DNA of 64,000 bases from a virus. The stretch is taken from positions 32,001 to 96,000 of the IMG/VR virus record IMGVR_UViG_3300042868_009121; one strand, 5' to 3'. Both the position numbers and the translations under genes were made by a program. The notes below the pieces were generated by a model. It did not search any database, had not been told where the DNA came from, and was given only the letters and a program-made list of their open reading frames with translations. Below, one piece after another: positions 9,550-33,225 of the stretch; within the stretch, counting starts at the first letter, position 1; each line of letters begins with the position of its first letter.

Positions 9550-9563
9550 AACTATTATTTTAG

Positions 9564-9650
9564 TACCTGAAGTGGGACTTGAACCCACACGAGCTTTTTC
9601 TGCTCACAAGATTTTAAGTCTTGCGCGTATACCGATTTCGCCATCCAGGT
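9564..9650 (-). tRNA. tRNA-Leu(TAA)
   Basis: Acceptor ACCTGGA/TTCAGGT, anticodon arm CAAGA-CTTAAAA-TCTTG, long variable arm, GGTTCAAGTCC T-loop. CCA not encoded. Confidence 0.93.
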
Positions 9651-9658
9651 TTAAAGAG

Positions 9659-9815
9659 CTGTCAGGGGAGGAGTCGAACCTCCATGCTGCAATTCAGTAT
9701 TAGACAAAATAGCCGGCTTTGTGGTCAACCCATATCTAAATACCTATCTTGTTTTTCAGCGCCCACGAGACGAGTGGGTGTGTATGCCGCGTAGCTACTC
9801 TTTCACCACCTGACA
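9659..9815 (-). tRNA. Enlarged tRNA-like RNA (157 nt), GTC (Asp-like) triplet in the anticodon loop
   Basis: Perfect acceptor TGTCAGG/CCTGACA with G discriminator. T-arm GGAGG-TTCGACT-CCTCC. Anticodon arm CCCAC-TCGTCTC-GTGGG. Expanded D-loop and ~75-nt structured variable region. Confidence 0.75.
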
Positions 9816-9819
9816 ATGA

Positions 9820-10038
9820 TTAATAAATTCTATCTTGTTTTTCTTGTTTATATTCTTTGTACTTTCTTACCCAAGTAAAGCTAACATCAACTGCCATTAA
9901 TATTGGTGCCATTACTAATATAGCTAATGTTTCTAATGCAGGAGATGCATATAAAGGATCTTCATTTCTTTTAGCATAACTTGTATACATTTTATATATG
10001 CAGTAAATTATGCTGATAATGTAAATAGTTAATATCAT
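9820..10038 (-). CDS. Small membrane protein
   Basis: Two hydrophobic segments; promoter-like box upstream. Confidence 0.7.
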   Translation of the reverse strand: MILTIYIISIIYCIYKMYTSYAKRNEDPLYASPALETLAILVMAPILMAVDVSFTWVRKYKEYKQEKQDRIY

Positions 10039-10053
10039 AACGTTTTATTTATT

Positions 10054-10095
10054 CAAATATAAAAAGATCTTTTGATATTGATATAATTGATCTTT
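10054..10095 (-). promoter_or_regulatory. Promoter: AAAGATCAATT-N23-TATATTTG (Bacteroidetes -7-like box)
   Basis: The same bipartite motif recurs at 12168-12209, 34277-34317 and 44101-44141. Confidence 0.6.
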
Positions 10096-10175
10096 AGAGT
10101 GATTCATTTTATTGATTTAGAAAGATATTTATTCTTGTACCACAAGGTATATATTTTTAACTTAAATCATTAGAA

Positions 10176-10346
10176 ATGAAAAAAACTGAATTACTAGGCC
10201 TTATCAGACACGCTCTTACTTTTGTCGGCGGTATCGTTGTTGCAAAAGGTTTGATTGATGAGAGCCTATTCCAAGAAGTTCTTGGTGGTGTTATGACTTT
10301 ATTTGGTGCTGGTTGGTCTCTTTGGGAGAAGAAAAAAGCTGCGTAA
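10176..10346 (+). CDS. Small 2-TM holin-like protein (56 aa; not in ORF track)
   Basis: MKKTELLGLIRHALTFVGGIVVAKGLIDESLFQEVLGGVMTLFGAGWSLWEKKKAA. ATATTTAT box upstream and terminator downstream. Confidence 0.7.
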   Translation: MKKTELLGLIRHALTFVGGIVVAKGLIDESLFQEVLGGVMTLFGAGWSLWEKKKAA

Positions 10347-10370
10347 TTAAAAACACTTTATTTAAAACAA

Positions 10371-10400
10371 AAGAGAGCCGGTTTCTACCGGCTTTTTTTA
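10371..10400. terminator. Intrinsic terminator, probably bidirectional
   Basis: AGCCGGT-TTCT-ACCGGCT stem with A/T tracts, between convergent genes. Confidence 0.8.
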
Positions 10401-10427
10401 TTAAAAGACTACTGTTCTTCAACTATT

Positions 10428-10703
10428 TTATTTTTTGTTTGTTAATTTAGTTTCTAATTTATCTAGTCTTGAATCCAATTGTGAATAGATGTCTTTTTCA
10501 AAACCATCAATTCTTGAATGACAGTGTCTATTTTCTTCAGCTATATTCTGATAAATTTCTCCTACAACTGAATCAAGTTGTCTTTGAATATTATCTAATT
10601 GATTTTTCACTTTTATTACCTTAACGAAGGCATAAGTAGCAACTATAGCCAAAGCTATAACCACAACGAATGCTATCCCTAAAACGAATGATAGTGTTTC
10701 CAT
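10428..10703 (-). CDS. Single-TM coiled-coil protein
   Basis: METLSFVLGIAFVVVIALAIVA... with AAGGAG upstream; flanked by a 15-bp inverted repeat. Confidence 0.7.
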   Translation of the reverse strand: METLSFVLGIAFVVVIALAIVATYAFVKVIKVKNQLDNIQRQLDSVVGEIYQNIAEENRHCHSRIDGFEKDIYSQLDSRLDKLETKLTNKK

Positions 10704-10721
10704 GATTTGTTTCTCCTTATA

Positions 10722-10733
10722 TGTCAAAGAACA
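10722..10733 (-). promoter_or_regulatory. BoxA-like antitermination element TGTTCTTTGACA
   Basis: Close to the rrn boxA consensus (TGCTCTTTAACA); sits directly downstream of a tRNA. Confidence 0.55.
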
Positions 10734-10742
10734 GTAGCCTTG

Positions 10743-10816
10743 TTGACCCTCTCGGGCTTGAACCGAGGACCCACAGATTATGAGTCTGTTGCTCTAACCA
10801 ACTGAGCTAAGGATCA
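10743..10816 (-). tRNA. tRNA with CAT anticodon (elongator Met or lysidine-Ile2)
   Basis: TGATCCT/AGGGTCA acceptor, TAGCTCAGTTGGTTAGAGC D-arm, ACAGA-CTCATAA-TCTGT. Lacks the three initiator G-C pairs. Confidence 0.92.
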
Positions 10817-10828
10817 ATCTTGATTCAG

Positions 10829-10900
10829 AGCCCCCGCCCAGAATCGAACTGAGTTATCGTGATTACAAGTCACGCGCATCGCCAGCAATGCTTAAGGGGC
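10829..10900 (-). tRNA. tRNA-Thr(TGT)
   Basis: GCCCCTT acceptor, CGTGA-CTTGTAA-TCACG anticodon arm, GTTCGATTC T-loop. Confidence 0.88.
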
Positions 10901-10902
10901 AT

Positions 10903-10931
10903 AAAAAAGGGAAGTCATTTCTGACCTCCCT
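10903..10931 (-). terminator. Intrinsic terminator after the putative ncRNA
   Basis: AGGGAGGTCA-GAAA-TGACTTCCCT followed by a T tract. Confidence 0.75.
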
Positions 10932-11218
10932 ATAAATTGATGGGAATAACGATTACCCATAATCCATGGACAGACCCCTTTTCACCCATAGTCCACAAAG
11001 ATGATCAGTCTAAGTGTTGAGACTAGTTGGATTGACTACCAACAACGCCTGCGGAGATCGTCATGATTTTCTTCGGCGTATCCAGAGCACTTTTAGGTTG
11101 CGCATTCTACCTTTAGTGTTGGTGGTTTTAACTCATCTGTCTGTGAAACCCAACTCAATAGCTTTTCAGCTATCTTATTAGTGCCTTAATCCCTCTCAAG
11201 GATTTATTCGGCCACATT
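10932..11218 (-). ncRNA. Unassigned structured ncRNA (~285 nt)
   Basis: GC-enriched, no ORF in the track, lies between tmRNA and tRNA-Thr. Several hairpins (GATAGCT-GAAA-AGCTATT, AATCCT/GGGATT, GTTGG/CCAAC, ACGCC/GGCGT, TAGTCT/AGACTG, ATGGG/CCCAT) plus a long-range pairing. Confidence 0.65.
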
Positions 11219-11226
11219 TTTATTTT

Positions 11227-11614
11227 TGGTGGAGATAGTGGGATTCGAACCCACGTCTCCGAAAGAGACAATAATACTAACGTCTCACATGCTTAGTACT
11301 GCTTGCGCTGCACCGTAAGGGCTGACTTGTTATGGTCGGATCCACCACTTGATTTTATGACTATCAAGAAAACAATCTACAGTCCTTATTTAACGAGTCG
11401 ATCGTGAATACTCGGAGTAGTTCTGTTCCTAGGTTACTCACCCGAGTTTGACTAGGCAGCTACTGCGTAGTCAGCACCAACGAAAGACATTGCGTCTTCG
11501 AAAGTGAATGAAGATAATTCTTCAGCGTTTATTGTTTAGTATCTTCTAAGGCAGTATACTCAAATGCCTGCATGTAGTATTACCTCAACATTCGGATCGA
11601 TACCGGTTATCCCC
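11227..11614 (-). ncRNA. ssrA: tmRNA
   Basis: 5' GGGGATA pairs with 3' TATCTCC-ACCA, giving the G3-U alanine identity pair. T-arm GTGGGTTCGAATCCCAC. Tag ORF after ATAAAC reads AEELSSFTFEDAMSFVGADYAVAA* (11526-11452). Confidence 0.93.
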
Positions 11615-12226: not shown

Positions 12227-13417
12227 TTATTGTCCCTTACTAGGAAATTTAGTCCAACCATTGATCCAAGTAGGCATAGCTAATTCAGGAATAATAACAT
12301 CAATCTCTTTATTACCTTTTCCTAAAGCTAGTGTTTTAAGTTGATCATTAGTTAGGATTGTTGTTGCTTTACTAATAAAGTTTTGAGTTGGATTGAATGC
12401 ACCTACTGAATTATTTTCAAATATAGATACACCGTCTTTTATTGCTTGAGCTGTTTCATTACTTTCTAAACTTAATCCACCTTTTATCCAACCGTAGATA
12501 GCACTATTCTTTACTGTAAATTGTGTAGCTCTTCTAAACCTTAAACCTAGATTGTGGTTCGCTAATGCGGTTTGATTATTAGGTCCAACTAATACCATTC
12601 CAATTAATTTAGGATGCGTAAATGGTTGTGCCAGTGAGCCCACACCATCATTATCACATTCTACACCATTACCTGCGTCACCGTTGTCTACAAACAAAGG
12701 ATCACGTTTTGCAATACCATTTGTTACAGTTCCAGTGTAACCAAAATCAAAGTCAAAGTCATCATCTGCTGTAGCATACGCATAAAGATTTTTTGGAGAA
12801 ACAGTTCCGCCAAAGAATTCAAATGCATCATCGTTAGCATAGATTGTTTGTACATTTTCAATTATAGTACCAGAACCTACACCACCTAAAGTAAGTGCAT
12901 TAATTTCTGAGTTAGGTAATGCGGCAATTCCTGCATATTCAATACGAACATACTTCAAAATACCACTGTTGTCTCCATCATCATTACCACCAAATGGACG
13001 ACCAATACCACCTTCAATAGTTGGTTCTGATGAACGATTAGTTTTTGCTTTGCCTAATATTACAATTCCACCCCAGTCACCAGGAGACCTCTCGCCGGCG
13101 ATTTTTCCTGAGGTAAAAATGATTGGTTTTGTTGCTGTTCCTTCTGCAATAATCTTTGCACCTCTTTCGATACATAAAGCACCTTTTTCTGCAATATCAC
13201 TTTTAATTACAGTTCCTGCTTGAATAATTAATGTAGCACCTTCTTTAACATAAACGTATCCTCTTAGAGTCCATTCTTTGTCAGAAGTAAGAGTTGTAGT
13301 TATTGTAATGTTACCCGTAATTGTTTTGTCAGTAGGTACATTTATAGGTGGATCTATAGGTTCTTTTTTACAAGCAAATAAACCGATAATTACTAAAAAT
13401 AAAATTAGCTTTTTCAT
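12227..13417 (-). CDS. Surface lipoprotein, beta-helix-like, partner of the TonB-dependent receptor
   Basis: Lipobox LFAC; PGDWGGIVILGKA, DNSGILKYVRIEYAG, EINALTLGGVGSGT, DDAFEFFGGTV, DDDFDFDFG motifs. Confidence 0.8.
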   Translation of the reverse strand: MKKLILFLVIIGLFACKKEPIDPPINVPTDKTITGNITITTTLTSDKEWTLRGYVYVKEGATLIIQAGTVIKSDIAEKGALCIERGAKIIAEGTATKPIIFTSGKIAGERSPGDWGGIVILGKAKTNRSSEPTIEGGIGRPFGGNDDGDNSGILKYVRIEYAGIAALPNSEINALTLGGVGSGTIIENVQTIYANDDAFEFFGGTVSPKNLYAYATADDDFDFDFGYTGTVTNGIAKRDPLFVDNGDAGNGVECDNDGVGSLAQPFTHPKLIGMVLVGPNNQTALANHNLGLRFRRATQFTVKNSAIYGWIKGGLSLESNETAQAIKDGVSIFENNSVGAFNPTQNFISKATTILTNDQLKTLALGKGNKEIDVIIPELAMPTWINGWTKFPSKGQ

Positions 13418-15663
13418 AAATTCAAATTAAATGTTAATGAAATTGATTGTTCGTTATTTGTTTTAATTAAATTGCCTCTTGATTTTTGATAATAAACAGA
13501 TGGTTGGGCAAGTATATCACCTACTGCTAATTTTATTTCTCCTTTACCTACTTTACGTAAGAATACTAAATCTATAACATCTCTAGAGTTTTCAAATATA
13601 TCATCGTATCCTTGAAAACCTACCGCAGATATTCTATCTCCAACTCTGTTATAAGAAATGTTAAACGTATTTTTTCCTTTATGTAAATTCAATCCACCAT
13701 TTACAACATAATTAGATTGTCCTTGTAATTGTCTTTTTCTTCCATTAACAATAACTTCAGATTTAACTATAGAAGTATTAGTATAAGCATCTAACCAATT
13801 AGTTATTTTTTTACGAAATTCTATTTCAAATCCAGCAACTAATGCTTGATCTGGGTTCAAGTAAGTTAATAATAGGTTTGATGGTACAGATCCATCTGCT
13901 ACTATTTGTTCAATTGGCTTTTTAAAGTCTTTAATAAAGAAAGCGGCAGATATATTTTCACCTTGTTTAGGATAGTATTCTAATTTAATATCAATATTGT
14001 ATATATCTGTTTTTTCTAAATTAGTATTACCCAATAATTGAGCATTACGTACAAAATCATAATAAGCAAAATTAGCCACTTCTCTAAATTCAGGTCTTGC
14101 TAATGTTTTACTAGCAGATATTCTATATTTGAATTTATCCCATTCATAAGAAAAGTTTACCGACGGTAAAAAGTCTAAGTACTTCCTATTTACATCAACT
14201 TTTTGTCCACTAAAATCTGCAGTATTAACATTAAACAAATTATATTCTGTTCTTAAACCTGCATTTACTTTCCAACCATTTAACTCGCCTTCATATAAAG
14301 CATACGCACTCGCTAAATCAAAATCTGCTGAATACTTGTCTGTGTTGTTAGTAATTTCATCTAACATGTCTATAGAAGTATATCTAAAGATTCTAGCTTT
14401 GAAAGTTCTATATTTTTTAATATAGCTTGAACCCATTTTAAAATTACCTAGTTGTTTATTCACACTAGCATTTAAACCATTTTCATCCATATCACTCCAG
14501 AAACGATAAGTATCTCTCCATGCTGTTGCATAAGGTTCATTAACACCTAATGATTTAGTTATTGGATTAATTCTATAGTCTGGTTGTTTTCTTATCATTA
14601 AGTTATATCCTACATTAAAATCAAAAGTTTTAATCTTGCCATCAAATTGTGAATTGATCAATGTTTTAATTATATTGTTAGATGCTGTACTTCTTACATC
14701 TTGAACATTATCATAATTTTCACCATTACGAGTTAAATACGTTTGTTCAACTTGATGATTAAATAATGTTTTCCAACTATACTTATTCTTTCCTGTATAA
14801 GTAATATTAGTTAGTGCATTTAATAATTGCACCTTACTAAATGAAGTATCTTTATATTTGTAAGCTAATTCAGTTGAAGATTGATAATCTTGTCTATCAA
14901 TGTAGTTTAATTGGAATGTATTTCTTGTTGTTGAACTAAATAAAAAGTTCCACTTATTTCTTTTTAAACCAAAAGACATTGATCCATTTAAGTTAGGAAT
15001 GGATTTAAATTGTTTGGCGTCTGGAGACTTTATAAGGCTTGTATAATTCCTTTTCTCTGTGTTTGTGCTTACGCGGTAAGTGTATGTGGATGGAAATTGA
15101 GTGGGGACGGTCGTATAATCCACCAATTTGAAATTTTGGGAAGTTGATACGGCCCCGTAGTTCATTCCGAGGCCTAATGAGAAAAAATCATTGGACACAT
15201 CTTTTGTAGTTATTTGAACAATACCTCCTGCAAAATCACCGGGTAAATTAGCTGTAGCTGACTTTGCTACTATGATATTATCTATAAGTCCTGAGGGAAT
15301 AATATCAAATGAGAATGCTCTACGATCAGGTTCTGTTGAAGGTAAAATGGTTTTATTCAACATAGCAGAGTTATATCTGTCTGCTAAACCTCTAACCAAT
15401 ACAAATTTATCGTTCTGTATAGTAACACCATTAACTCTTTTGAGTGCGTCACCTACACTACGGTCAGGAGTCTTTTTTATAAATTCAATAGAAAGACCAT
15501 CAGATATAACAGAACTATTTCTGATACTATTAACAACGGCAATATTGGATTCTTTCTTTTGTACAGAACGAATTGTAATATTGTCTAGTTTTTGATTAAA
15601 AATTGTGTCTTGAGAAAATGACAGAACCGGGAATAGTAAAAATAATAACGTTTTTAATTTCAT
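13414..15663 (-). CDS. TonB-dependent outer-membrane receptor
   Basis: Signal peptide; plug motif ALKRVNGVT...VRGLADRYN...FDIIP...LPGDFAGG; barrel motifs LARPEFRE and GNTNLE; amphipathic C-terminal strand. Confidence 0.9.
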   Translation of the reverse strand: MKLKTLLFLLFPVLSFSQDTIFNQKLDNITIRSVQKKESNIAVVNSIRNSSVISDGLSIEFIKKTPDRSVGDALKRVNGVTIQNDKFVLVRGLADRYNSAMLNKTILPSTEPDRRAFSFDIIPSGLIDNIIVAKSATANLPGDFAGGIVQITTKDVSNDFFSLGLGMNYGAVSTSQNFKLVDYTTVPTQFPSTYTYRVSTNTEKRNYTSLIKSPDAKQFKSIPNLNGSMSFGLKRNKWNFLFSSTTRNTFQLNYIDRQDYQSSTELAYKYKDTSFSKVQLLNALTNITYTGKNKYSWKTLFNHQVEQTYLTRNGENYDNVQDVRSTASNNIIKTLINSQFDGKIKTFDFNVGYNLMIRKQPDYRINPITKSLGVNEPYATAWRDTYRFWSDMDENGLNASVNKQLGNFKMGSSYIKKYRTFKARIFRYTSIDMLDEITNNTDKYSADFDLASAYALYEGELNGWKVNAGLRTEYNLFNVNTADFSGQKVDVNRKYLDFLPSVNFSYEWDKFKYRISASKTLARPEFREVANFAYYDFVRNAQLLGNTNLEKTDIYNIDIKLEYYPKQGENISAAFFIKDFKKPIEQIVADGSVPSNLLLTYLNPDQALVAGFEIEFRKKITNWLDAYTNTSIVKSEVIVNGRKRQLQGQSNYVVNGGLNLHKGKNTFNISYNRVGDRISAVGFQGYDDIFENSRDVIDLVFLRKVGKGEIKLAVGDILAQPSVYYQKSRGNLIKTNNEQSISLTFNLNL

Positions 15664-15725
15664 ATAAATAGATATTTTGGAAATTTATTCCAAATGATAT
15701 CTTAATATTACTAAATTATTAATTA

Positions 15726-16025
15726 TTACTTACTGCTTTTCTCCTTAGTGCCAAAATAATAACTAAAGATCATTAGTACTAGCGTCTTTATTAGATCAAA
15801 TAACTCTTTATTTTGCTCAGGAGATATTAAATTAATTTTCCAAGCTATAGTTTTATCAACAATAAATAAAGCAACTAAAGCAGTAAATATCATTAATATA
15901 AATCTAACTAATATTTCTTGAGTATTTTGTGCAAATAGTTTATACGTAAAATAAACAGACATCATTATAAACCCTAAAGCCGCAAATATCCCTAGAATCA
16001 TTGTTAATCCACCTTCTGAAAACAT
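15726..16025 (-). CDS. 3-TM membrane protein, holin-like
   Basis: Three hydrophobic helices ending in YYFG plus a basic tail, a pattern common in phage holin-like proteins. Confidence 0.55.
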   Translation of the reverse strand: MFSEGGLTMILGIFAALGFIMMSVYFTYKLFAQNTQEILVRFILMIFTALVALFIVDKTIAWKINLISPEQNKELFDLIKTLVLMIFSYYFGTKEKSSK

Positions 16026-16029
16026 AACT

Positions 16030-16431
16030 TTATTTTAATTGGTTTTGACTTGTATCTATTTTTTCAGTGATTACACTATCAGATTTTATAGTAGTATTTG
16101 TTTTTTCTTTACCCCAAAAATTCTTTTTAGTCTCAATATAAACAGTATCTATTTTATATACAATTTTTTCAGTAGCTATTGTTTGTTTACTTAATACTTC
16201 TTTATATTTTTCAACTTCAGTATTTAAATAGCTTATTTCTTTAACTATTTTAACTACTTGTTCTTTAGCAGTTGAATCTGATTGGTGGTAAACTAGAACT
16301 GCTGTATCAAAGTGTTTTTGGCTACTTTCAAGTATATTATCTACTTCTATCATTTGTTTAGTTATAACCTCTTGATCTTGGTTTTTACAACTAAATAAAA
16401 ATAAAAAAGATAATAGTAATAATTTTTTCAT
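16030..16431 (-). CDS. Coiled-coil lipoprotein (o-spanin-like?)
   Basis: Lipobox LFSC; lies in the lysis-like cluster. Confidence 0.5.
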   Translation of the reverse strand: MKKLLLLSFLFLFSCKNQDQEVITKQMIEVDNILESSQKHFDTAVLVYHQSDSTAKEQVVKIVKEISYLNTEVEKYKEVLSKQTIATEKIVYKIDTVYIETKKNFWGKEKTNTTIKSDSVITEKIDTSQNQLK

Positions 16432-16432
16432 A

Positions 16433-16735
16433 TTATTTAATTTTACCTAATTCTTGTAACAATGTAATTTTAGAAACAGCAGAAGCTAAAGCGCTATCAG
16501 ATCTACGAAGTTGATTTGATAATATATCAACTTTGGTTTCTAATACTACAATTTTAGCGTCTTGTTTAGTTACTATTTCTTTATTTGATAATTTAATATC
16601 AACATAAAGATATCCAATTGCAATTAATACAATAAATAATAATCCTTTAACAGGATCTTTGCTAAATTCTTTAAATGAGATTGGAGGTTTAATTGTTCCT
16701 GCCAATGATTCTACCGCTGTTTTTTTTGGTGCCAT
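16433..16735 (-). CDS. Single-TM coiled-coil protein (i-spanin/holin-like?)
   Basis: One TM (GLLFIVLIAIGYLYV) followed by a coiled coil. Confidence 0.5.
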   Translation of the reverse strand: MAPKKTAVESLAGTIKPPISFKEFSKDPVKGLLFIVLIAIGYLYVDIKLSNKEIVTKQDAKIVVLETKVDILSNQLRRSDSALASAVSKITLLQELGKIK

Positions 16736-16736
16736 G

Positions 16737-17852
16737 TTATTTTTGATTTTTACTACCTTCTTGAGTGGCGTATTTTATACCCATAATTGTTCCAACTATT
16801 GAAAACGCATTTGTCAATAATACACTAAACATGTTACTCCAAGTAGAGCCAATAATCTGTGTATCCTTACCAGTAAGCATTGCCATCCAATACAATGTAG
16901 TTGTTACAACACCTACGCCAATAATAACTGCTAATGCAACTTTTACAATCACCTTAATTAACTCGGATTGACTTTTTTTCATTACCACATCTAAATCATT
17001 TAACGCAGCATTTTTTTCTATTTCAATTGCGTCTTTCAGTTTTTTAGAGTTATCCAATTCAATTTGTAAATCTTTTGATAGGGCATCTATCTTGTTTTTA
17101 CTATTGACAGCTTCAGTAACATCAGTAGCAATTTTGATTACATTTGTAACATTTCCTTTGCTGTCAAAGACTGGATTATAGGTGGCTTGTAAATAGATAG
17201 TAGAGCCATCCACTTTTTTTCTTTCAAATATTCCGTCAAAAAACTTGCCGCTTTTTAAGGATTTCCAAAACTTACTATACTCATCTGATTTTGAATACTC
17301 ATAAGTTACAAAAATACTATGATGCTTTCCTATCACTTGGCTTTTTTCATTTGATCTATATCCCATGGTTTCTAAAAACACAGAATTAGCATCTACAATA
17401 AAACCATTAATATCAAAAGTAATAGTTGCAGTACTCTTATTAATTGCGTCTATCTGTTTTTTACTATTTACAATCATAGTAATGTCAGTAGCAACTTTCA
17501 TTACTTTAGTAATTGTACCACTCTCATCGTAAATAGGATTGTATGTTGCTTGTAAGTTGATAAGACTACCGTCTCTTTTCCTTCTTTCAAATTCTCCTTG
17601 ATAGTATTTACCACTTCTTAATATATCCCAGAACTTTTCATATTCCAATGATCTTGCATAATCTTCACATACAAAAATACTATGGTGCTTACCAATAAGT
17701 TCTGCATGCTCATCTGCACCATATCCCATTGCTTCTAAAAATATTGCATTAACACCTAAAATTTTTCCAGTTAGGTCAAAATAGATGATAGCATTGCTAC
17801 GATTAATCGCTTCAAGCCTACTTAGTAATTCTTCTTTAGATAGATTTTTCAT
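16737..17852 (-). CDS. Tandem PAS/PAC-domain protein with C-terminal coiled coil and two TM helices
   Basis: Two BdlA-type PAS repeats (AIIYFDLTGKILGVN..FL..MGY...IGKHHSIF...FW..L..G....GEFER...DG..I.LQATYNPI.D..G....V.K.ATDIT). No MCP or kinase output domain. Confidence 0.88.
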   Translation of the reverse strand: MKNLSKEELLSRLEAINRSNAIIYFDLTGKILGVNAIFLEAMGYGADEHAELIGKHHSIFVCEDYARSLEYEKFWDILRSGKYYQGEFERRKRDGSLINLQATYNPIYDESGTITKVMKVATDITMIVNSKKQIDAINKSTATITFDINGFIVDANSVFLETMGYRSNEKSQVIGKHHSIFVTYEYSKSDEYSKFWKSLKSGKFFDGIFERKKVDGSTIYLQATYNPVFDSKGNVTNVIKIATDVTEAVNSKNKIDALSKDLQIELDNSKKLKDAIEIEKNAALNDLDVVMKKSQSELIKVIVKVALAVIIGVGVVTTTLYWMAMLTGKDTQIIGSTWSNMFSVLLTNAFSIVGTIMGIKYATQEGSKNQK

Positions 17853-18122
17853 TTATTGAGTTACTACAGTATCTACAACTTCAATAGCTAAAGTATCTAT
17901 AGGCTCTACAGGAACAATTACACTATTAATAGGAGTATCTGGAAAAGCATCGCTTACAACATTAATAATTGCTTCAAAATTCAATGATTCTTCAGCAATA
18001 TATCCTTTTTGAACAGCAAATATTCCAGCGGCAATTGCTACTACTGATAAGATGATTACAATTTTCTTTTTACCTTTAAATTTAGTTATTAAAGGAATTA
18101 GTTTTGATACTACGTTTTTCAT
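17853..18122 (-). CDS. Single-TM hypothetical protein
   Basis: Basic N-terminus then IVIILSVVAIAAGIFAV. Confidence 0.65.
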   Translation of the reverse strand: MKNVVSKLIPLITKFKGKKKIVIILSVVAIAAGIFAVQKGYIAEESLNFEAIINVVSDAFPDTPINSVIVPVEPIDTLAIEVVDTVVTQ

Positions 18123-18247
18123 TAATCTTTTTTTATATGGTTTTCTATATTTTTTATAACCTTTATATTTTGATCAATTAATTTACGATCTTTAAGGCCG
18201 TTCCTTCTAGACTTCATAGGTCTTGGTTTCGGTGATTTTTTTGCCAT
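18122..18247 (-). CDS. Small basic protein (41 aa; not in ORF track)
   Basis: MAKKSPKPRPMKSRRNGLKDRKLIDQNIKVIKNIENHIKKD, TAATG-coupled on both sides. Confidence 0.6.
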   Translation of the reverse strand: MAKKSPKPRPMKSRRNGLKDRKLIDQNIKVIKNIENHIKKD

Positions 18248-18522
18248 TATAACTCCTCCTCTACCGGCTCTTCTTTAGCTCCAGCTTTTTTATTTACAAA
18301 CTTATCAATTGAAGCTATACCAAAGCATCCTAATACTAACCACATGAATGCATCGAATATAAAATCATTAATTACTAATGGCTTACCTAAATATCCGGTT
18401 ACAATATCTGCTAATGCAAATCCTACCATCATTACGAAAGCTAAAAAGCCTACTACAGACTTTTCATTAATATCATTGTTGTCTTTAAACAACTTGATAA
18501 AAAAAGATTGTTTTGATTTCAC
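18247..18522 (-). CDS. 2-TM membrane protein, holin-like
   Basis: Two TMs, charged C-terminus, directly downstream of the endolysin. Confidence 0.6.
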   Translation of the reverse strand: MKSKQSFFIKLFKDNNDINEKSVVGFLAFVMMVGFALADIVTGYLGKPLVINDFIFDAFMWLVLGCFGIASIDKFVNKKAGAKEEPVEEEL

Positions 18523-18568
18523 TTGTTATACTTTTAATTAATAAATGTACAACCATTATGAAACTAAA

Positions 18569-19168
18569 CTACTTCAATAAGCTATAATACTCTTTGAAAT
18601 GCTTGATTCTGTCAGGAAGACCTATGGTACCACCATTTACTCTTTTGGTAACTGAAGTAACTACAGCATCTGTAGCACCTTGATCTGCAATTTTATGAAG
18701 ACCATTTTTATGGAAAAACCATGCAGCAGAAAGTAGAGGATACTTTGTTGCAACTAAATCTGGATTATCAATGATTGATTCGGCTACTACTGCATCGAAT
18801 GCTTTATAATTATCTTTTCCGGTTAATTGAATATAGCCTCTGCCACGAAATCTATAACCCTCTCCAGAAGCTTCAGGGCCATTACCCATTCTAGCTCCAT
18901 AAACTAGATTAGCAATTTTTTCTGGCTTGCGCTCATACAATTTAGCTTTTTCTTCTGTTGGGAAATACTTCTTGAATATACTCAATAGACCTTTTGCTCC
19001 GTAATTTAAATTTTCGTTAACTGCTTTAAATCCACCGGATTCGTGGCCTGCTTGAGCAAGAAAATGTGCTAAACGAAGTGGAGTGTTTAATTCAAATTTA
19101 GCAATTGTGTCTGGTAGCTGTGTAATAACAGCATCAGGGATATGCCCTTTAAGTTTGCTTATGTCCAT
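18569..19168 (-). CDS. Endolysin, glycoside hydrolase family 19
   Basis: RLAHFLAQAGHESGGF, ENLNY, YRFRGRGYIQLTGKDNY, SAAWFF, VTKRVNGG..GL.DR. Confidence 0.92.
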   Translation of the reverse strand: MDISKLKGHIPDAVITQLPDTIAKFELNTPLRLAHFLAQAGHESGGFKAVNENLNYGAKGLLSIFKKYFPTEEKAKLYERKPEKIANLVYGARMGNGPEASGEGYRFRGRGYIQLTGKDNYKAFDAVVAESIIDNPDLVATKYPLLSAAWFFHKNGLHKIADQGATDAVVTSVTKRVNGGTIGLPDRIKHFKEYYSLLK

Positions 19169-19218
19169 AGTATATAAATAATTTACTTAATTTATTTACA
19201 ACCTAGATTCAAAAACAA

Positions 19219-19362
19219 TTAAAGTATTATTTTGATTATGTCTCTTATTAAATCTTCTCTTCCTAAAAATTCTAAAGCTATTAAAGATACTCCTAGTGCC
19301 AATCCAAATAATTGCGCTATAATTATAAACTTTAAAGAAAACTCTATTAGGCGGTTTTTCAT
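19219..19362 (-). CDS. Small membrane protein (47 aa; not in ORF track)
   Basis: MKNRLIEFSLKFIIIAQLFGLALGVSLIALEFLG... with GTTATG start and ATATTTAT box. Confidence 0.55.
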   Translation of the reverse strand: MKNRLIEFSLKFIIIAQLFGLALGVSLIALEFLGREDLIRDIIKIIL

Positions 19363-19376
19363 AACATTTATAAATA

Positions 19377-19634
19377 TCATTTAAATTGGTTCAAAACTCT
19401 AGAAAGTTGATCTTTTGCCATAACTCCTGAGTTTCTGTATGCTACTTGACCTTGTCCATCTAGTATGATCAAAGTAGGTACTGATGTTACAGAATATCTT
19501 TCTGCAAAAGAAGCATCATAATCAACATTAATGTAGTTTATATTAACTCCCAATTCTCCAGATACCATTTCTACAACTGGTTTAAACATCTTACACGGTC
19601 CGCACCAAGGTGCTGTGAAATACAAAACTTGCAT
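19377..19634 (-). CDS. trxA: Thioredoxin
   Basis: WCGPC active site, SVPT cis-Pro loop. Confidence 0.92.
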   Translation of the reverse strand: MQVLYFTAPWCGPCKMFKPVVEMVSGELGVNINYINVDYDASFAERYSVTSVPTLIILDGQGQVAYRNSGVMAKDQLSRVLNQFK

Positions 19635-19635
19635 A

Positions 19636-20280
19636 TTAATTTATTTTAAATTTAAAGTTAGTTAATTTTTCTATTTCTTTTATATCTACTTCATTATTTT
19701 CAATTCCATCAGCTTTAGACTGATCATTATTAAATATATAAGCTTTCCATTCATTTTTGCTCTTTATATAAATAACTTTCCAACACTTATCAGGAACCGA
19801 TACTCTACCTATTTTTCTTTTTTCTCCTACTGAGCCTGTCCATACTTTAACTGAATCTAATGATTTAGCTAATTCTCTAGTACGCATTTCTAAAGTCTTC
19901 CAATCCCCTCTATTTAATTGTCCATATTGTGGAACCATATTAGAGAAATAAAAAGACTCTATCATAGCATCTTTACCAGAACACTGATTATCAGCTGCTG
20001 GAGCCATATGGCCACGATCAAAACCTGATTTGATATAATCACTAGCTAAATCGGTATAGGCGGCCAGAAGTGGGTCTGGTACAAATCTATCATGTCTTGG
20101 TATGGCTTTGTCACATTGAACCTTATTCTTTGTCACCCACCATTCAACTAGTACAGGATACTTTAAAGATTTTGAAAATACAGTAATATACTCTTTATGG
20201 AACAATCTCACTGTATCTTGTGCCTTTAATGACACACTAAGGAAAAGAACTATCGTTGTGGATAATAATGTTCTAAACAT
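19636..20280 (-). CDS. DNA/RNA non-specific endonuclease (NucA/EndoG family) with signal peptide
   Basis: FDRGHMAPAAD, SFYFSNMVPQ...LNRGDWK.LE; N-terminal signal-like segment. Confidence 0.9.
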   Translation of the reverse strand: MFRTLLSTTIVLFLSVSLKAQDTVRLFHKEYITVFSKSLKYPVLVEWWVTKNKVQCDKAIPRHDRFVPDPLLAAYTDLASDYIKSGFDRGHMAPAADNQCSGKDAMIESFYFSNMVPQYGQLNRGDWKTLEMRTRELAKSLDSVKVWTGSVGEKRKIGRVSVPDKCWKVIYIKSKNEWKAYIFNNDQSKADGIENNEVDIKEIEKLTNFKFKIN

Positions 20281-31593: not shown

Positions 31594-33225
31594 TTACATT
31601 CCCATAGTCATGTCCATCATAGGATCTGACTTGTCATTTTTTTCTTTCTTTTCAAATACAACAGATTCAGTTGTCAAAATAGTTCCTGCTACTGATGTTG
31701 CATTCTTAAGTGCTGTAATAACAACTTTAGCTGGATCAATGATGCCTGATTCAAACGCATCTACCATTTTATGATTCTTTGCATCATAAATTTTATTTTT
31801 TACTAATTCGCTTGGAATATAATTCCACCAGTCTTCTACACCAGCATTAGATAAAATCTTAATAAATGGTGCTTGTAAAGCATTGCGAACAATATCTCTA
31901 GCGATTGCTACATTGCTATTGCTTTCTGCTCTATGATTAAGTGCTACTCTATAAAGTGTTGCACCACCACCAGGTACGATACCGTCAGCAAGAGCTGCTT
32001 TAGTTGCAAATAATGCATCTTCTACACGATCTTTCTTTTCTCTAATCTCAATATCACTATTACCACCTACAGAAATAATTGCAACACCACCAATCAACTT
32101 ACCAAGTCTTTCTTGCAACTTCTCTTTCTCGTAGAACGATGTAGCTTTTTCAATTTGCTCTTTTATTTCTTCTGCTCTAACTTCAATCGCTCTCTCATTA
32201 CCTTTACCATCAATAATAGTAGTCTCTTCTTTAGATACAGTTACAAGTCTTGTTGTACCAAGATATTGAGCGAGTTGCTGTGTAGATAATTTATCAAGCT
32301 TCAAACCTTTATCTTTAGAAATAACTTGTCCACCTGTCAAGATAGCAATATCTTCTAAGATTAATGTTTTACGCTCACCAAAGTCTGGTGCTTTAACTGC
32401 GCAAACTTGTACAATACCACGCATTTTATTTACAATTAATGTAGCAAGAGCTTCATCACCAATATCTTCAGCGATAATTAATAAAGGTCTATTCTCTGAA
32501 TTTGCTTTAGTCAATACTTGTAACAACTCTTGTGCAGTTGAAATACGTCCATCATATAAAAGAATATATGGATTATCAAGCACAGATTGCATTGTTACAT
32601 TGTTAGTTACAAAGTAAGGTGATTTGTAACCACGATCAAATTGCATACCTTCAACAATCTCTAATGTAGTTTCACCAGTTTTAGATTCTTCAATAGTTAC
32701 TACACCTTCACGACCTACTTTATCAAGTGCTTCAGCAATTAAGTTACCAACTTCAGGATCATTATTACCTGAGATAGTTGCAACTTGTTTAATTTGCTCT
32801 TCTGAAGAAATTTCTGTTGCTAATTCTTTAATTTCTTTTACTACTTCATTAACGATATTGTCAATCTCATTCTTAATCTCAACAGCGTTAACGCCTTGAC
32901 GAATTTCTTTAAGACCTTGTTTAATCATTTCAGTAGCAAGAAGTGTAGATGTTGTTGTACCATCACCTGCTTCATTTGCAGATTTAATACTAACTTGCTT
33001 AACAAGTTGTGCACCAAGATCTTCAATATCATCTTCAAGTTTATGAAATGCTTTAGCTACTGTTACACCATCTTTTGTAACTTTAACTTCACCATTTTGT
33101 TCACGAATTAATACTGTGCGACCACCAGGACCTAATGTTGATGATACTGATTGATTTAACTTTTCTATACCGGAAAGTAACTTTTCTTTAAGCTCTGTTC
33201 CAAAAACGTTTTTTGTTGTACTCAT
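31594..33225 (-). CDS. groEL: Chaperonin GroEL
   Basis: [55 protein letters not shown]. Confidence 0.97.

Follow-up and report, generated by a model that had tools for sequence, protein, structure and literature searches.

The timing of lysis sets the burst size and the fitness of a phage. To our knowledge, signal-dependent timing of lysis is understood only as lysis inhibition, in T-even phages and ICP1. Do phages also time lysis by the physiology of their host? The question is raised, and made testable with a single protein of 371 amino acids (aa), by a gene in a stretch of DNA from an uncultured virus (IMG/VR record IMGVR_UViG_3300042868_009121, positions 32,001 to 96,000). We refer to the whole analyzed stretch, 64 kilobases (kb) long, as the window. 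The gene lies on the minus strand at 16737-17852, inside a lysis cassette, and encodes two PAS domains, a long helix, and a C-terminal membrane hairpin, the tail. An initial annotation had described it as a PAS-PAS sensor with a holin-like tail and had proposed signal-gated lysis.

We propose, with a probability of roughly 0.55, that the gene encodes an accessory sensor-effector of the lysis cassette, contained in one polypeptide, that regulates the timing of lysis. In hundreds of uncultured phages from lakes and the sea, a predicted sensor of intracellular state is wired to a lysis-cassette membrane protein. The wiring takes two interchangeable forms: a direct fusion, as in the window, or a relay of histidine kinase and receiver.

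Architecture of the PAS-PAS-helix-hairpin protein

Full-length relatives of the protein, 79-95% identical, occur in 159 viral contigs, so the open reading frame (ORF) is not a chance one. The ORF, Pfam, and an AlphaFold2 model agree with the initial annotation on two PAS domains, a coiled coil, and a hydrophobic pair. Pfam reports PAS_3 (E 5.3e-27) and PAS_9 (E 1.1e-21) over two stretches, residues ~33-120 and ~148-247. Matches in NCBIfam are of PAS type alone (TIGR00229, E 9e-31), and neither library finds a methyl-accepting chemotaxis protein (MCP), kinase, GGDEF, or other output domain, as had been noted. In the model, with a mean predicted local distance difference test score (pLDDT) of 80.3, an N-cap helix, PAS-A (21-123), a linker helix, and PAS-B (142-244) are followed by a continuous helix (246-327), a 4-residue turn, and a last helix (332-365). 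Two PAS folds are visible, which places the protein among PAS-domain proteins. The continuous helix, ~80 residues long, takes in the entire "coiled coil" together with the first transmembrane (TM) segment, TM1. Both hydrophobic helices pointed out earlier are real; the second, TM2, had been quoted three residues off and spans W338-I359. We infer that both ends of the protein are cytoplasmic (N-in/C-in), since the PAS head of 300 aa has no signal peptide and lysines flank the hairpin on the cytoplasmic side.

The initial annotation had called the PAS domains BdlA-like. The nearest solved relatives of the PAS part are MmoS, Aer, NifL, DosP, and FixL, with Foldseek E values from 4e-16 (MmoS) to 1e-12 and a phmmer match to MmoS at E 5e-9. 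Flavin PAS proteins make up 3 of the 5 solved relatives that are detectable by sequence (3ewk, 8dik, 2gj3); the heme PAS proteins DosP and FixL reach fold scores similar to those of the flavin relatives. The pair is predicted to be most like flavin- or heme-binding sensors of redox state or oxygen. With a PAS-PAS input and a hairpin output in one chain, and no phosphotransfer partner nearby, the protein has the layout of a one-component system, whose output is here a membrane hairpin and not the usual DNA-binding or enzymatic domain.

Could it instead be a chemoreceptor-like or BdlA-like signaling protein? Many orthologues bear the Joint Genome Institute (JGI) label "methyl-accepting chemotaxis protein," and the combination of PAS domains and coiled coil recalls the N-terminal region of soluble chemoreceptors. 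We regard this as very improbable: the protein ends in a membrane hairpin, the family is confined to phages, and the defining MCPsignal domain (PF00015) is absent in both Pfam and NCBIfam, which refutes membership in the MCP family. A histidine kinase was rejected as well, because the DHp histidine box and HATPase_c are absent from the window protein; both are intact in the kinases of the sister system described below.

The tail family

The tail was followed through 320 loci annotated with local hidden Markov models (HMMs), and heads were counted by unique protein: 135 tail proteins carry a head that we call LEGN, 61 carry PAS-PAS, 6 a single PAS, and 3 a GAF domain. Pfam confirms the GAF (E 2.5e-17) and PAS (E 1.5e-10) heads; the LEGN head is a small knob, 37 residues in the model of a LEGN-type protein.

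Residues 261-371 were searched against 1.84 billion protein cluster representatives. The search returned 95 representatives (70 at E <= 1e-10), the longest of 371 aa; the tail stands at the C-terminus of every one, and none is a receiver-tail fusion. The tail is present on more than 453 IMG/VR viral contigs. Across 185,579 species genomes it was found on 8 contigs, each from a metagenome-assembled genome (MAG), and its look-alikes in the ESM Atlas are 100% viral and have no Pfam family. A tblastn search of 50,697 deposited phages with four queries (the tail, one LEGN protein, and two divergent members) gave no match even at E <= 1; its low-complexity filter may mask coiled-coil and TM segments. 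By these database counts, the tail is a phage-only family.

Constraint on the tail is severe. In 51 tails of all head types, otherwise 52-95% identical, 23 columns are invariant, and TM2 is extraordinarily constrained; the tm91 family, neighboring proteins with two TM segments, has no invariant column. Invariant residues of the TM1 region are I302, V303, A306, V313, G314, T317, and Y321. TM2 carries an almost invariant motif, W-S-N ... L-L-T-N-x-F-S-I-x-G-T-I-M-G, which contains GxxxG and a mid-membrane Asn.

None of the curated libraries names the tail. The family phrog_1544, whose function is listed as unknown in PHROGs, matches 43 of the 51 tails weakly but consistently at its C-terminal positions ~124-189 (best E 6e-4). 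The likeness to holins noted initially holds in topology alone. Neither the protein nor the tail has a significant match among the holin families of Pfam, PHROGs, and NCBIfam, and hhalign probabilities against the co-resident Phage_holin_4_1 and tm91 families are 0.4% and 0.8%. At the level of structure, the LEGN-type model has no match in the PDB at E <= 0.001 (Foldseek), and the tail profile finds nothing below E 4.8 among PDB sequences.

Two candidate relationships were set aside. Phage_holin_9 matched 6 of 51 and 5 of 59 members at E 0.001-0.01, which is not above coiled-coil noise in the same scans. For MotA/ExbB, one divergent member (E 0.05) and a "GT-x-x-G" likeness did not recur in the 51 tails.

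A helix with heptad spacing

The helix between head and membrane looks like a signaling helix, both in the alignments and in the models. The LEGN-type model (pLDDT 89.9) consists of the knob, a helix (38-158) continuous into TM1, a turn, and TM2; it shares with the window model the same output geometry, a single helix running into TM1. From the LEGN head motif to the invariant DLD-x-LQKK there are 54, 61, 68, 75, 82, or 89 residues, and one modulo-7 class holds 102 of 121 sequences. The step from DLD to the Trp of TM2 is 52 residues in 118/121 LEGN, 59/59 PAS-PAS, and 6/6 PAS forms. On the other side of DLD, the D(I/V)T motif that ends the PAS head lies exactly 42 residues away (six heptads) in 58/59 PAS-PAS and 6/6 PAS forms. 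Length steps of whole heptads, together with fixed spacers, are expected if helical register must hold between head and membrane. The same junction, in the form "KIATDxT," also precedes the DHp helix of phage kinases, where it is at least 90% conserved in 110 sequences.

Two wirings of one proposed output

The proposal that a sensor has been joined to a membrane module stands, and it gains a context: in other phages, this hairpin partners consistently with a phage-encoded PAS/GAF histidine kinase plus receiver. A receiver lies within six genes of 104 of 109 LEGN forms and of none of 46 fused (PAS-PAS, PAS, or GAF) forms (Fisher p 4e-34). It is a stand-alone protein encoded immediately upstream in 90 of the 109, at a median gap of 0 base pairs (bp). 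Histidine kinases are distributed likewise, near 107/109 LEGN and 0/46 fused forms, and the 64-kb window contains neither kinase nor receiver. Judged by its catalytic residues, the phage relay is intact: the phospho-acceptor residues DD, D66, S/T, and K119 are invariant in 59 receivers, and the H, N, G1, and G2 boxes are kept in 110 kinases.

The sensors of the relay kinases are PAS, PAS-PAS, GAF-PAS, or GAF-PAS-PAS, modules that are also found fused to the tail. Residues 1-256 of the window protein are collinear, from residue 1, with the PAS-PAS part of three relay kinases (50-52% identity, E 1e-90), and PAS-A shares 55-58% identity with PAS domains from phage histidine kinases. GAF heads are 57-60% identical to kinase GAF domains, and single-PAS heads up to 72% identical to kinase PAS domains. 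The comparison implies at least three independent fusions in which a kinase sensor module was joined to the membrane protein downstream in the relay. PAS and GAF are input domains, and the tail would therefore be the output. The earlier statement that the phage had replaced an output domain calls for rewording: the sensor module of a phage kinase was fused to the membrane target of the relay.

In some phages, the fused and the three-gene wirings share one genomic slot. Locus L027 reads DnaB, two ribonucleotide reductase genes, PAS-PAS-tail, a gene for a 108-aa 2-TM protein, tm91, and lysozyme. Locus L125 reads DnaB, two ribonucleotide reductase genes, a small TM gene, kinase, receiver, LEGN-tail, one more gene, tm91, M15 endolysin, and holin.

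The relay itself comes in variants. Two freshwater LEGN loci (L173, L180) have tandem kinases before a single receiver and hairpin, one with GAF-PAS(-PAS) and one of 463-500 aa without a recognized sensor, which suggests that two inputs converge on one output. Marine LEGN loci (L082-L160, e.g., L082:1-14585) carry a gene for a 62-66-aa 2-TM protein (cluster C4) just upstream of the kinase, sometimes a gene for a 160-aa 2-TM protein (C12) between receiver and hairpin, and, 3' of the hairpin, either a four-TM coiled-coil protein of 350-415 aa (C7) or a soluble protein of 176 aa (C8). None of these four partner clusters has a library match.

Linkage to lysis genes

The tight packing of the gene among small membrane proteins, a lipoprotein, and a GH19 endolysin was read correctly from the window, and homologs keep the same company. 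With at least 3 kb on each side, an endolysin lies within six genes in 33/38 PAS-type loci; counted by unique PAS-type protein with the local HMMs, in 24/28. Among fused forms with 5-kb flanks, 21 of 25 have an endolysin within 5 kb, and in 20 of these 21 the nearest is within 1 kb, at a median gap of 28 bp (uniform expectation ~20%, p 2e-13). The endolysins at these loci belong to five classes: GH19, Peptidase_M15, Amidase_2 with PG_binding_1, PG_binding_1 alone, and the phrog_7 lysozyme. A Phage_holin_4_1 protein recognizable by Pfam is frequent. Often the tail gene is inside the cassette, flanked by tm91 on one side and by an endolysin or holin_4_1 on the other (e.g., tm91, tail, endolysin, holin), and the three-gene form is likewise found between holin_4_1 or an endolysin and tm91.

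An accessory gene

A search anchored on orthologues of the window endolysin, and not on the PAS gene, yielded 35 unique contexts, 7 of which have a tail gene within 4 kb. Two pairs of loci capture its gain or loss. L372 and L368 are 90-100% identical in protein sequence on both sides of the exchanged region, where a block of 4.6 kb in L372, encoding the PAS-PAS-tail protein, a TonB-dependent receptor, and a protein of 400 aa, corresponds to 1.5 kb of other genes in L368. Between L354 and L384, the 1.1-kb tail gene alone is exchanged, within conserved flanks and inside the cassette. Endolysin and tm91 stay in both pairs, and L368 also keeps the stretch that encodes a 41-aa peptide and an 89-aa protein upstream of the PAS gene in the window. 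Since cassettes without the tail gene keep endolysin and tm91, the tail protein is not the essential holin: a required holin gene would not be missing from the syntenic cassettes L368 and L384. The tail gene is an accessory add-on, like antiholins, dispensable and placed in or beside the cassette as a gene for an antiholin or for lysis timing would be.

This optional nature bears on a second explanation, in which the protein is itself a holin- or pinholin-like pore, as the initial annotation had proposed, with the hairpin oligomerizing into a depolarizing lesion and the PAS head gating assembly. Much about the hairpin suits such a pore. It would be an N-in/C-in pair of TM helices with a short basic C-terminus, encoded directly beside endolysins as holins are, yet part of a protein that, at 371 aa, is not small. 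The GxxxG, the mid-membrane Asn, and a polar Ser/Thr/Asn stripe in a TM2 that hardly varies suit self-assembly over variable partners, and the hairpin stays constant while the neighboring holin-type genes vary in presence. The window also lacks a holin_4_1 gene, and its endolysin lacks both a signal sequence and a TM segment at the N-terminus. We nevertheless consider the pore unlikely, because the gene is absent from syntenic cassettes that keep endolysin, tm91, and the 89-aa gene; because it co-occurs at many loci with a recognizable holin_4_1; because no holin family rises above noise; and because no convincing stand-alone, holin-sized tail was found, the short matches being truncated gene calls or contig ends.

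How a sensor might time lysis

In the proposed mechanism, the window protein is the fused form of a relay that would run from a PAS/GAF histidine kinase through a stand-alone receiver to a hairpin protein with a small docking head. Two cytoplasmic PAS domains would sense a cue within the infected cell, and the D-V-T junction would pass it on to the register-locked helix, which runs unbroken into the inner membrane. There, the hairpin, with its polar-striped TM2, may change its packing with itself or with a partner, and this change could restrain or trigger permeabilization by the resident holin(s), shifting the time of lysis. That the head controls the hairpin, that the hairpin acts on lysis, in which direction it acts, and what signal it reads are all proposed parts of this scheme.

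Several points weigh against a role in lysis timing. No homology links the hairpin to the holin or antiholin families searched. The near-total invariance of TM2, at loci where the presence of holin_4_1 and tm91 varies, is easier to reconcile with self-assembly or a conserved host target than with binding to one phage holin; it slightly favors the first two, which is why the sensor-gated pore was kept among the explanations. Regions that flank lysis genes are common landing sites for accessory genes, and position alone could mislead, since in L372 the genes for a TonB-dependent receptor and a 400-aa protein come or go with the tail gene. One of the five endolysin models lies within six genes in 51 of 84 LEGN loci, leaving about a third of these loci without any of them nearby. 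Lastly, the loci come from related phages and are not independent samples, so the p-values overstate the support.

Some of these points lend themselves to another explanation: a membrane-anchored sensor with a non-lysis job, such as excluding superinfection or manipulating the respiration, transport, or envelope of the host, that rides an accessory hot spot. The gene is optional, present in a fifth of the endolysin-orthologue contexts (7/35) and in one pair part of a larger block that is gained or lost as a unit, and the invariance of TM2 could mirror a conserved host membrane target. We judge this explanation unlikely. The linkage persists through many rearrangements and five non-homologous classes of endolysin, often inside the cassette and not at its edge; the exchange between L354 and L384 involves the tail gene alone, within the cassette; and the three-gene form is embedded among lysis genes too.

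Regulation of lysis timing thus remains our preferred reading, and a bolder version of it can be put forward tentatively, as something possible that we would not bet on. Aquatic phages may own a modular lysis-signaling pathway in which a PAS/GAF sensor, through kinase and receiver or by fusion, switches a hairpin that depolarizes or seals the inner membrane, timing lysis post-translationally by the redox, energy, oxygen, or light state of the host. The window protein would then be the minimal, single-chain sensor-trigger.

Relation to known systems

In T4, lysis inhibition acts on holin T through the antiholins RI and RIII; holin T carries a large regulatory domain, and RI is a periplasmic sensor that engages T at its periplasmic domain (PMC11413866, PMC8385771). 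In ICP1, the holin is TeaA and the antiholin is ArrA, a TM protein whose gene is non-essential (PMC7182436). The likeness lies in an accessory, non-essential protein that is encoded with the lysis genes and couples the triggering time of a holin to a sensed signal, as we propose here. These proteins have no sequence or fold relationship to the hairpin protein, however, and they sense superinfection from the periplasm, whereas here the input is a cytoplasmic PAS pair in one chain with the membrane part, or a phage two-component system.

MmoS, NifL, DosP, FixL, and LOV-PAS-HK share with the window protein the tandem PAS domains, the N-cap helix, and the D-I/V-T junction into a long helix. In those proteins, the output is DHp/CA, GGDEF/EAL, enzymatic, or DNA-binding; here the helix leads to a membrane hairpin, and signaling would run from the inside to the membrane.

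A two-component system next to membrane proteins of holin type has a bacterial counterpart: LytS/LytR (LytST) of Firmicutes lies beside, and controls, the holin-like LrgAB/CidAB proteins (PMC6997555). LytST is bacterial and transcriptional, acting through the DNA-binding LytTR regulator, whereas in the window a direct fusion replaces the relay. The phage receiver has no output domain, so control in the three-gene relay must be from protein to protein.

VqmA contains a PAS-type ligand domain. VqmA-Phage, of vibriophage VP882, is a phage-encoded small-molecule receptor that sets the timing of host lysis (PMC7790227). It is a soluble transcription factor that works a lysis-lysogeny switch through Qtip, in contrast to the window protein, which has no DNA-binding domain, is membrane-inserted, and is encoded among the lysis genes of a myophage that appears to be lytic. 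The pinholin of phage 21, S21-68, is a class II holin of ~70 aa with two TM segments and no sensor, and is the essential holin of its cassette. It resembles the tail in its N-in/C-in hairpin of two helices and in the small and polar residues of TM2, which are glycine-zipper-like; there is no homology, and the window hairpin differs in being optional and in always having a cytoplasmic helix and a head.

The initial annotation knew of no described PAS-holin. A literature search likewise turned up no such protein, and no description of a PAS-hairpin protein or of a kinase-receiver-hairpin system; the Rec domain in a survey of jumbo phages differs, being linked to nicotinamide adenine dinucleotide (NAD) (PMC7824862). 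If our reading is true, the window protein would represent the first phage lysis regulator with a recognizable ligand or redox sensor, and with the relay a phage two-component system would, for the first time, have a defined output. Sensor, rigid helix, and membrane hairpin would also make a compact, portable part for the study of inside-out transmembrane signaling.

The phage and its lysis cassette

The source is a large uncultured freshwater myophage. The window has ~31% G+C, carries nearly all its genes on the minus strand, and encodes a tail sheath, a family-A-type DNA polymerase, ribonucleotide reductase, DnaB helicase, and GroEL. Cassette DNA occurs in lake-water metagenomes from ~20 studies, and no RNA run is listed as containing it. 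The nearest deposited phages have the endolysin alone in common with it, at 66-76% DNA identity; the two best are themselves uncultured and metagenomic, and the named ones are Flavobacterium phages. The host is probably a member of the Bacteroidota, as indicated by these endolysin relatives and by an adjoining outer-membrane protein of Bacteroidota type. On the minus strand at 9563-11614, the window also encodes three tRNAs (tRNA-Leu, tRNA-Met, tRNA-Thr) and a tmRNA with a tag of 24 codons ending in YAVAA.

Table 1. Features of the lysis cassette and parts of the PAS-PAS-helix-hairpin protein, in window coordinates.
Feature	Position	Strand	Basis
GH19-type endolysin	18569..19168	-	Pfam Glyco_hydro_19 E 1.4e-7; phrog_181 endolysin E 2.5e-66
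91-aa 2-TM protein with charged C-terminus (tm91 family)	18247..18522	-	sequence
41-aa basic peptide and 89-aa single-TM protein, abutting/overlapping, upstream of PAS gene	17853..18247	-	ORFs
PAS-PAS-helix-hairpin gene, 371 aa	16737..17852	-	ORF; Pfam; AlphaFold2 model; viral-contig relatives
PAS-A, residues 21-123, preceded by N-cap helix (residues 6-19)	17484..17792	-	Pfam; model
PAS-B, residues 142-246, ending in D244-V245-T246 junction motif	17115..17429	-	Pfam; model
Putative cytoplasmic signaling helix, residues 247-304, with invariant D286-L287-D288 motif	16941..17114	-	model
TM1, V305-L326	16875..16940	-	sequence; model
TM2, within helix 332-365	16776..16841	-	sequence; model
100-aa protein (N-terminal TM, coiled coil) and 133-aa lipoprotein (lipobox LFSC), directly after PAS gene	16030..16735	-	sequences
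99-aa multi-TM protein, final gene of run	15726..16025	-	sequence; cluster c40 recurs in PAS-type loci

In order of transcription, the cassette runs from the endolysin through the 91-aa, 41-aa, and 89-aa genes to the PAS gene and on to the 100-aa, 133-aa, and 99-aa genes (Table 1). A gap of 46 bp follows the endolysin, and from the 91-aa to the 99-aa gene all gaps are -1 to 4 bp, those of the PAS gene included. No terminator-like site was found in 15400-19700, and the cassette shows no excess of promoter-like sites over shuffled sequence. The tm91 protein, without a match in Pfam, PHROGs, or NCBIfam, is a candidate holin or holin partner; its family is present in 45/80 PAS-type and 34/79 LEGN-type loci. 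The 100-aa and 133-aa proteins, which also have no match in these three libraries, look like an i-spanin/o-spanin pair.

Just 3' of the cassette (12227-15663, minus strand) lie a gene for a 749-aa TonB-dependent receptor (Plug and OMP_b-brl_3) and a lipoprotein-like gene of 396 aa. Genes of corresponding size, for a receptor and a 400-aa protein, accompany the PAS gene in the 4.6-kb block that distinguishes L372 from L368, and in tblastn both window genes are matched by L004, which is on the same contig as L372. These comparisons point to an accessory island where the lysis cassette ends. The endolysin gene is immediately preceded (19377-20280, minus strand) by a gene for an 85-aa protein with a thioredoxin-type WCGPC motif and, beside it, one for a DNA/RNA non-specific endonuclease (Pfam E 2.7e-44) of 214 aa, whose N-terminus forms a hydrophobic leader. 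That a thioredoxin-type gene lies near a possible redox sensor may be chance or may be meaningful.

Across L001-L080, median identity to the window is 82% for the PAS-PAS-hairpin protein, 68% for the GH19 endolysin, 46% for tm91, and 39% for the lipoprotein. The higher conservation of the PAS-PAS-hairpin protein points to strong constraint, to recent spread between phages, or to both.

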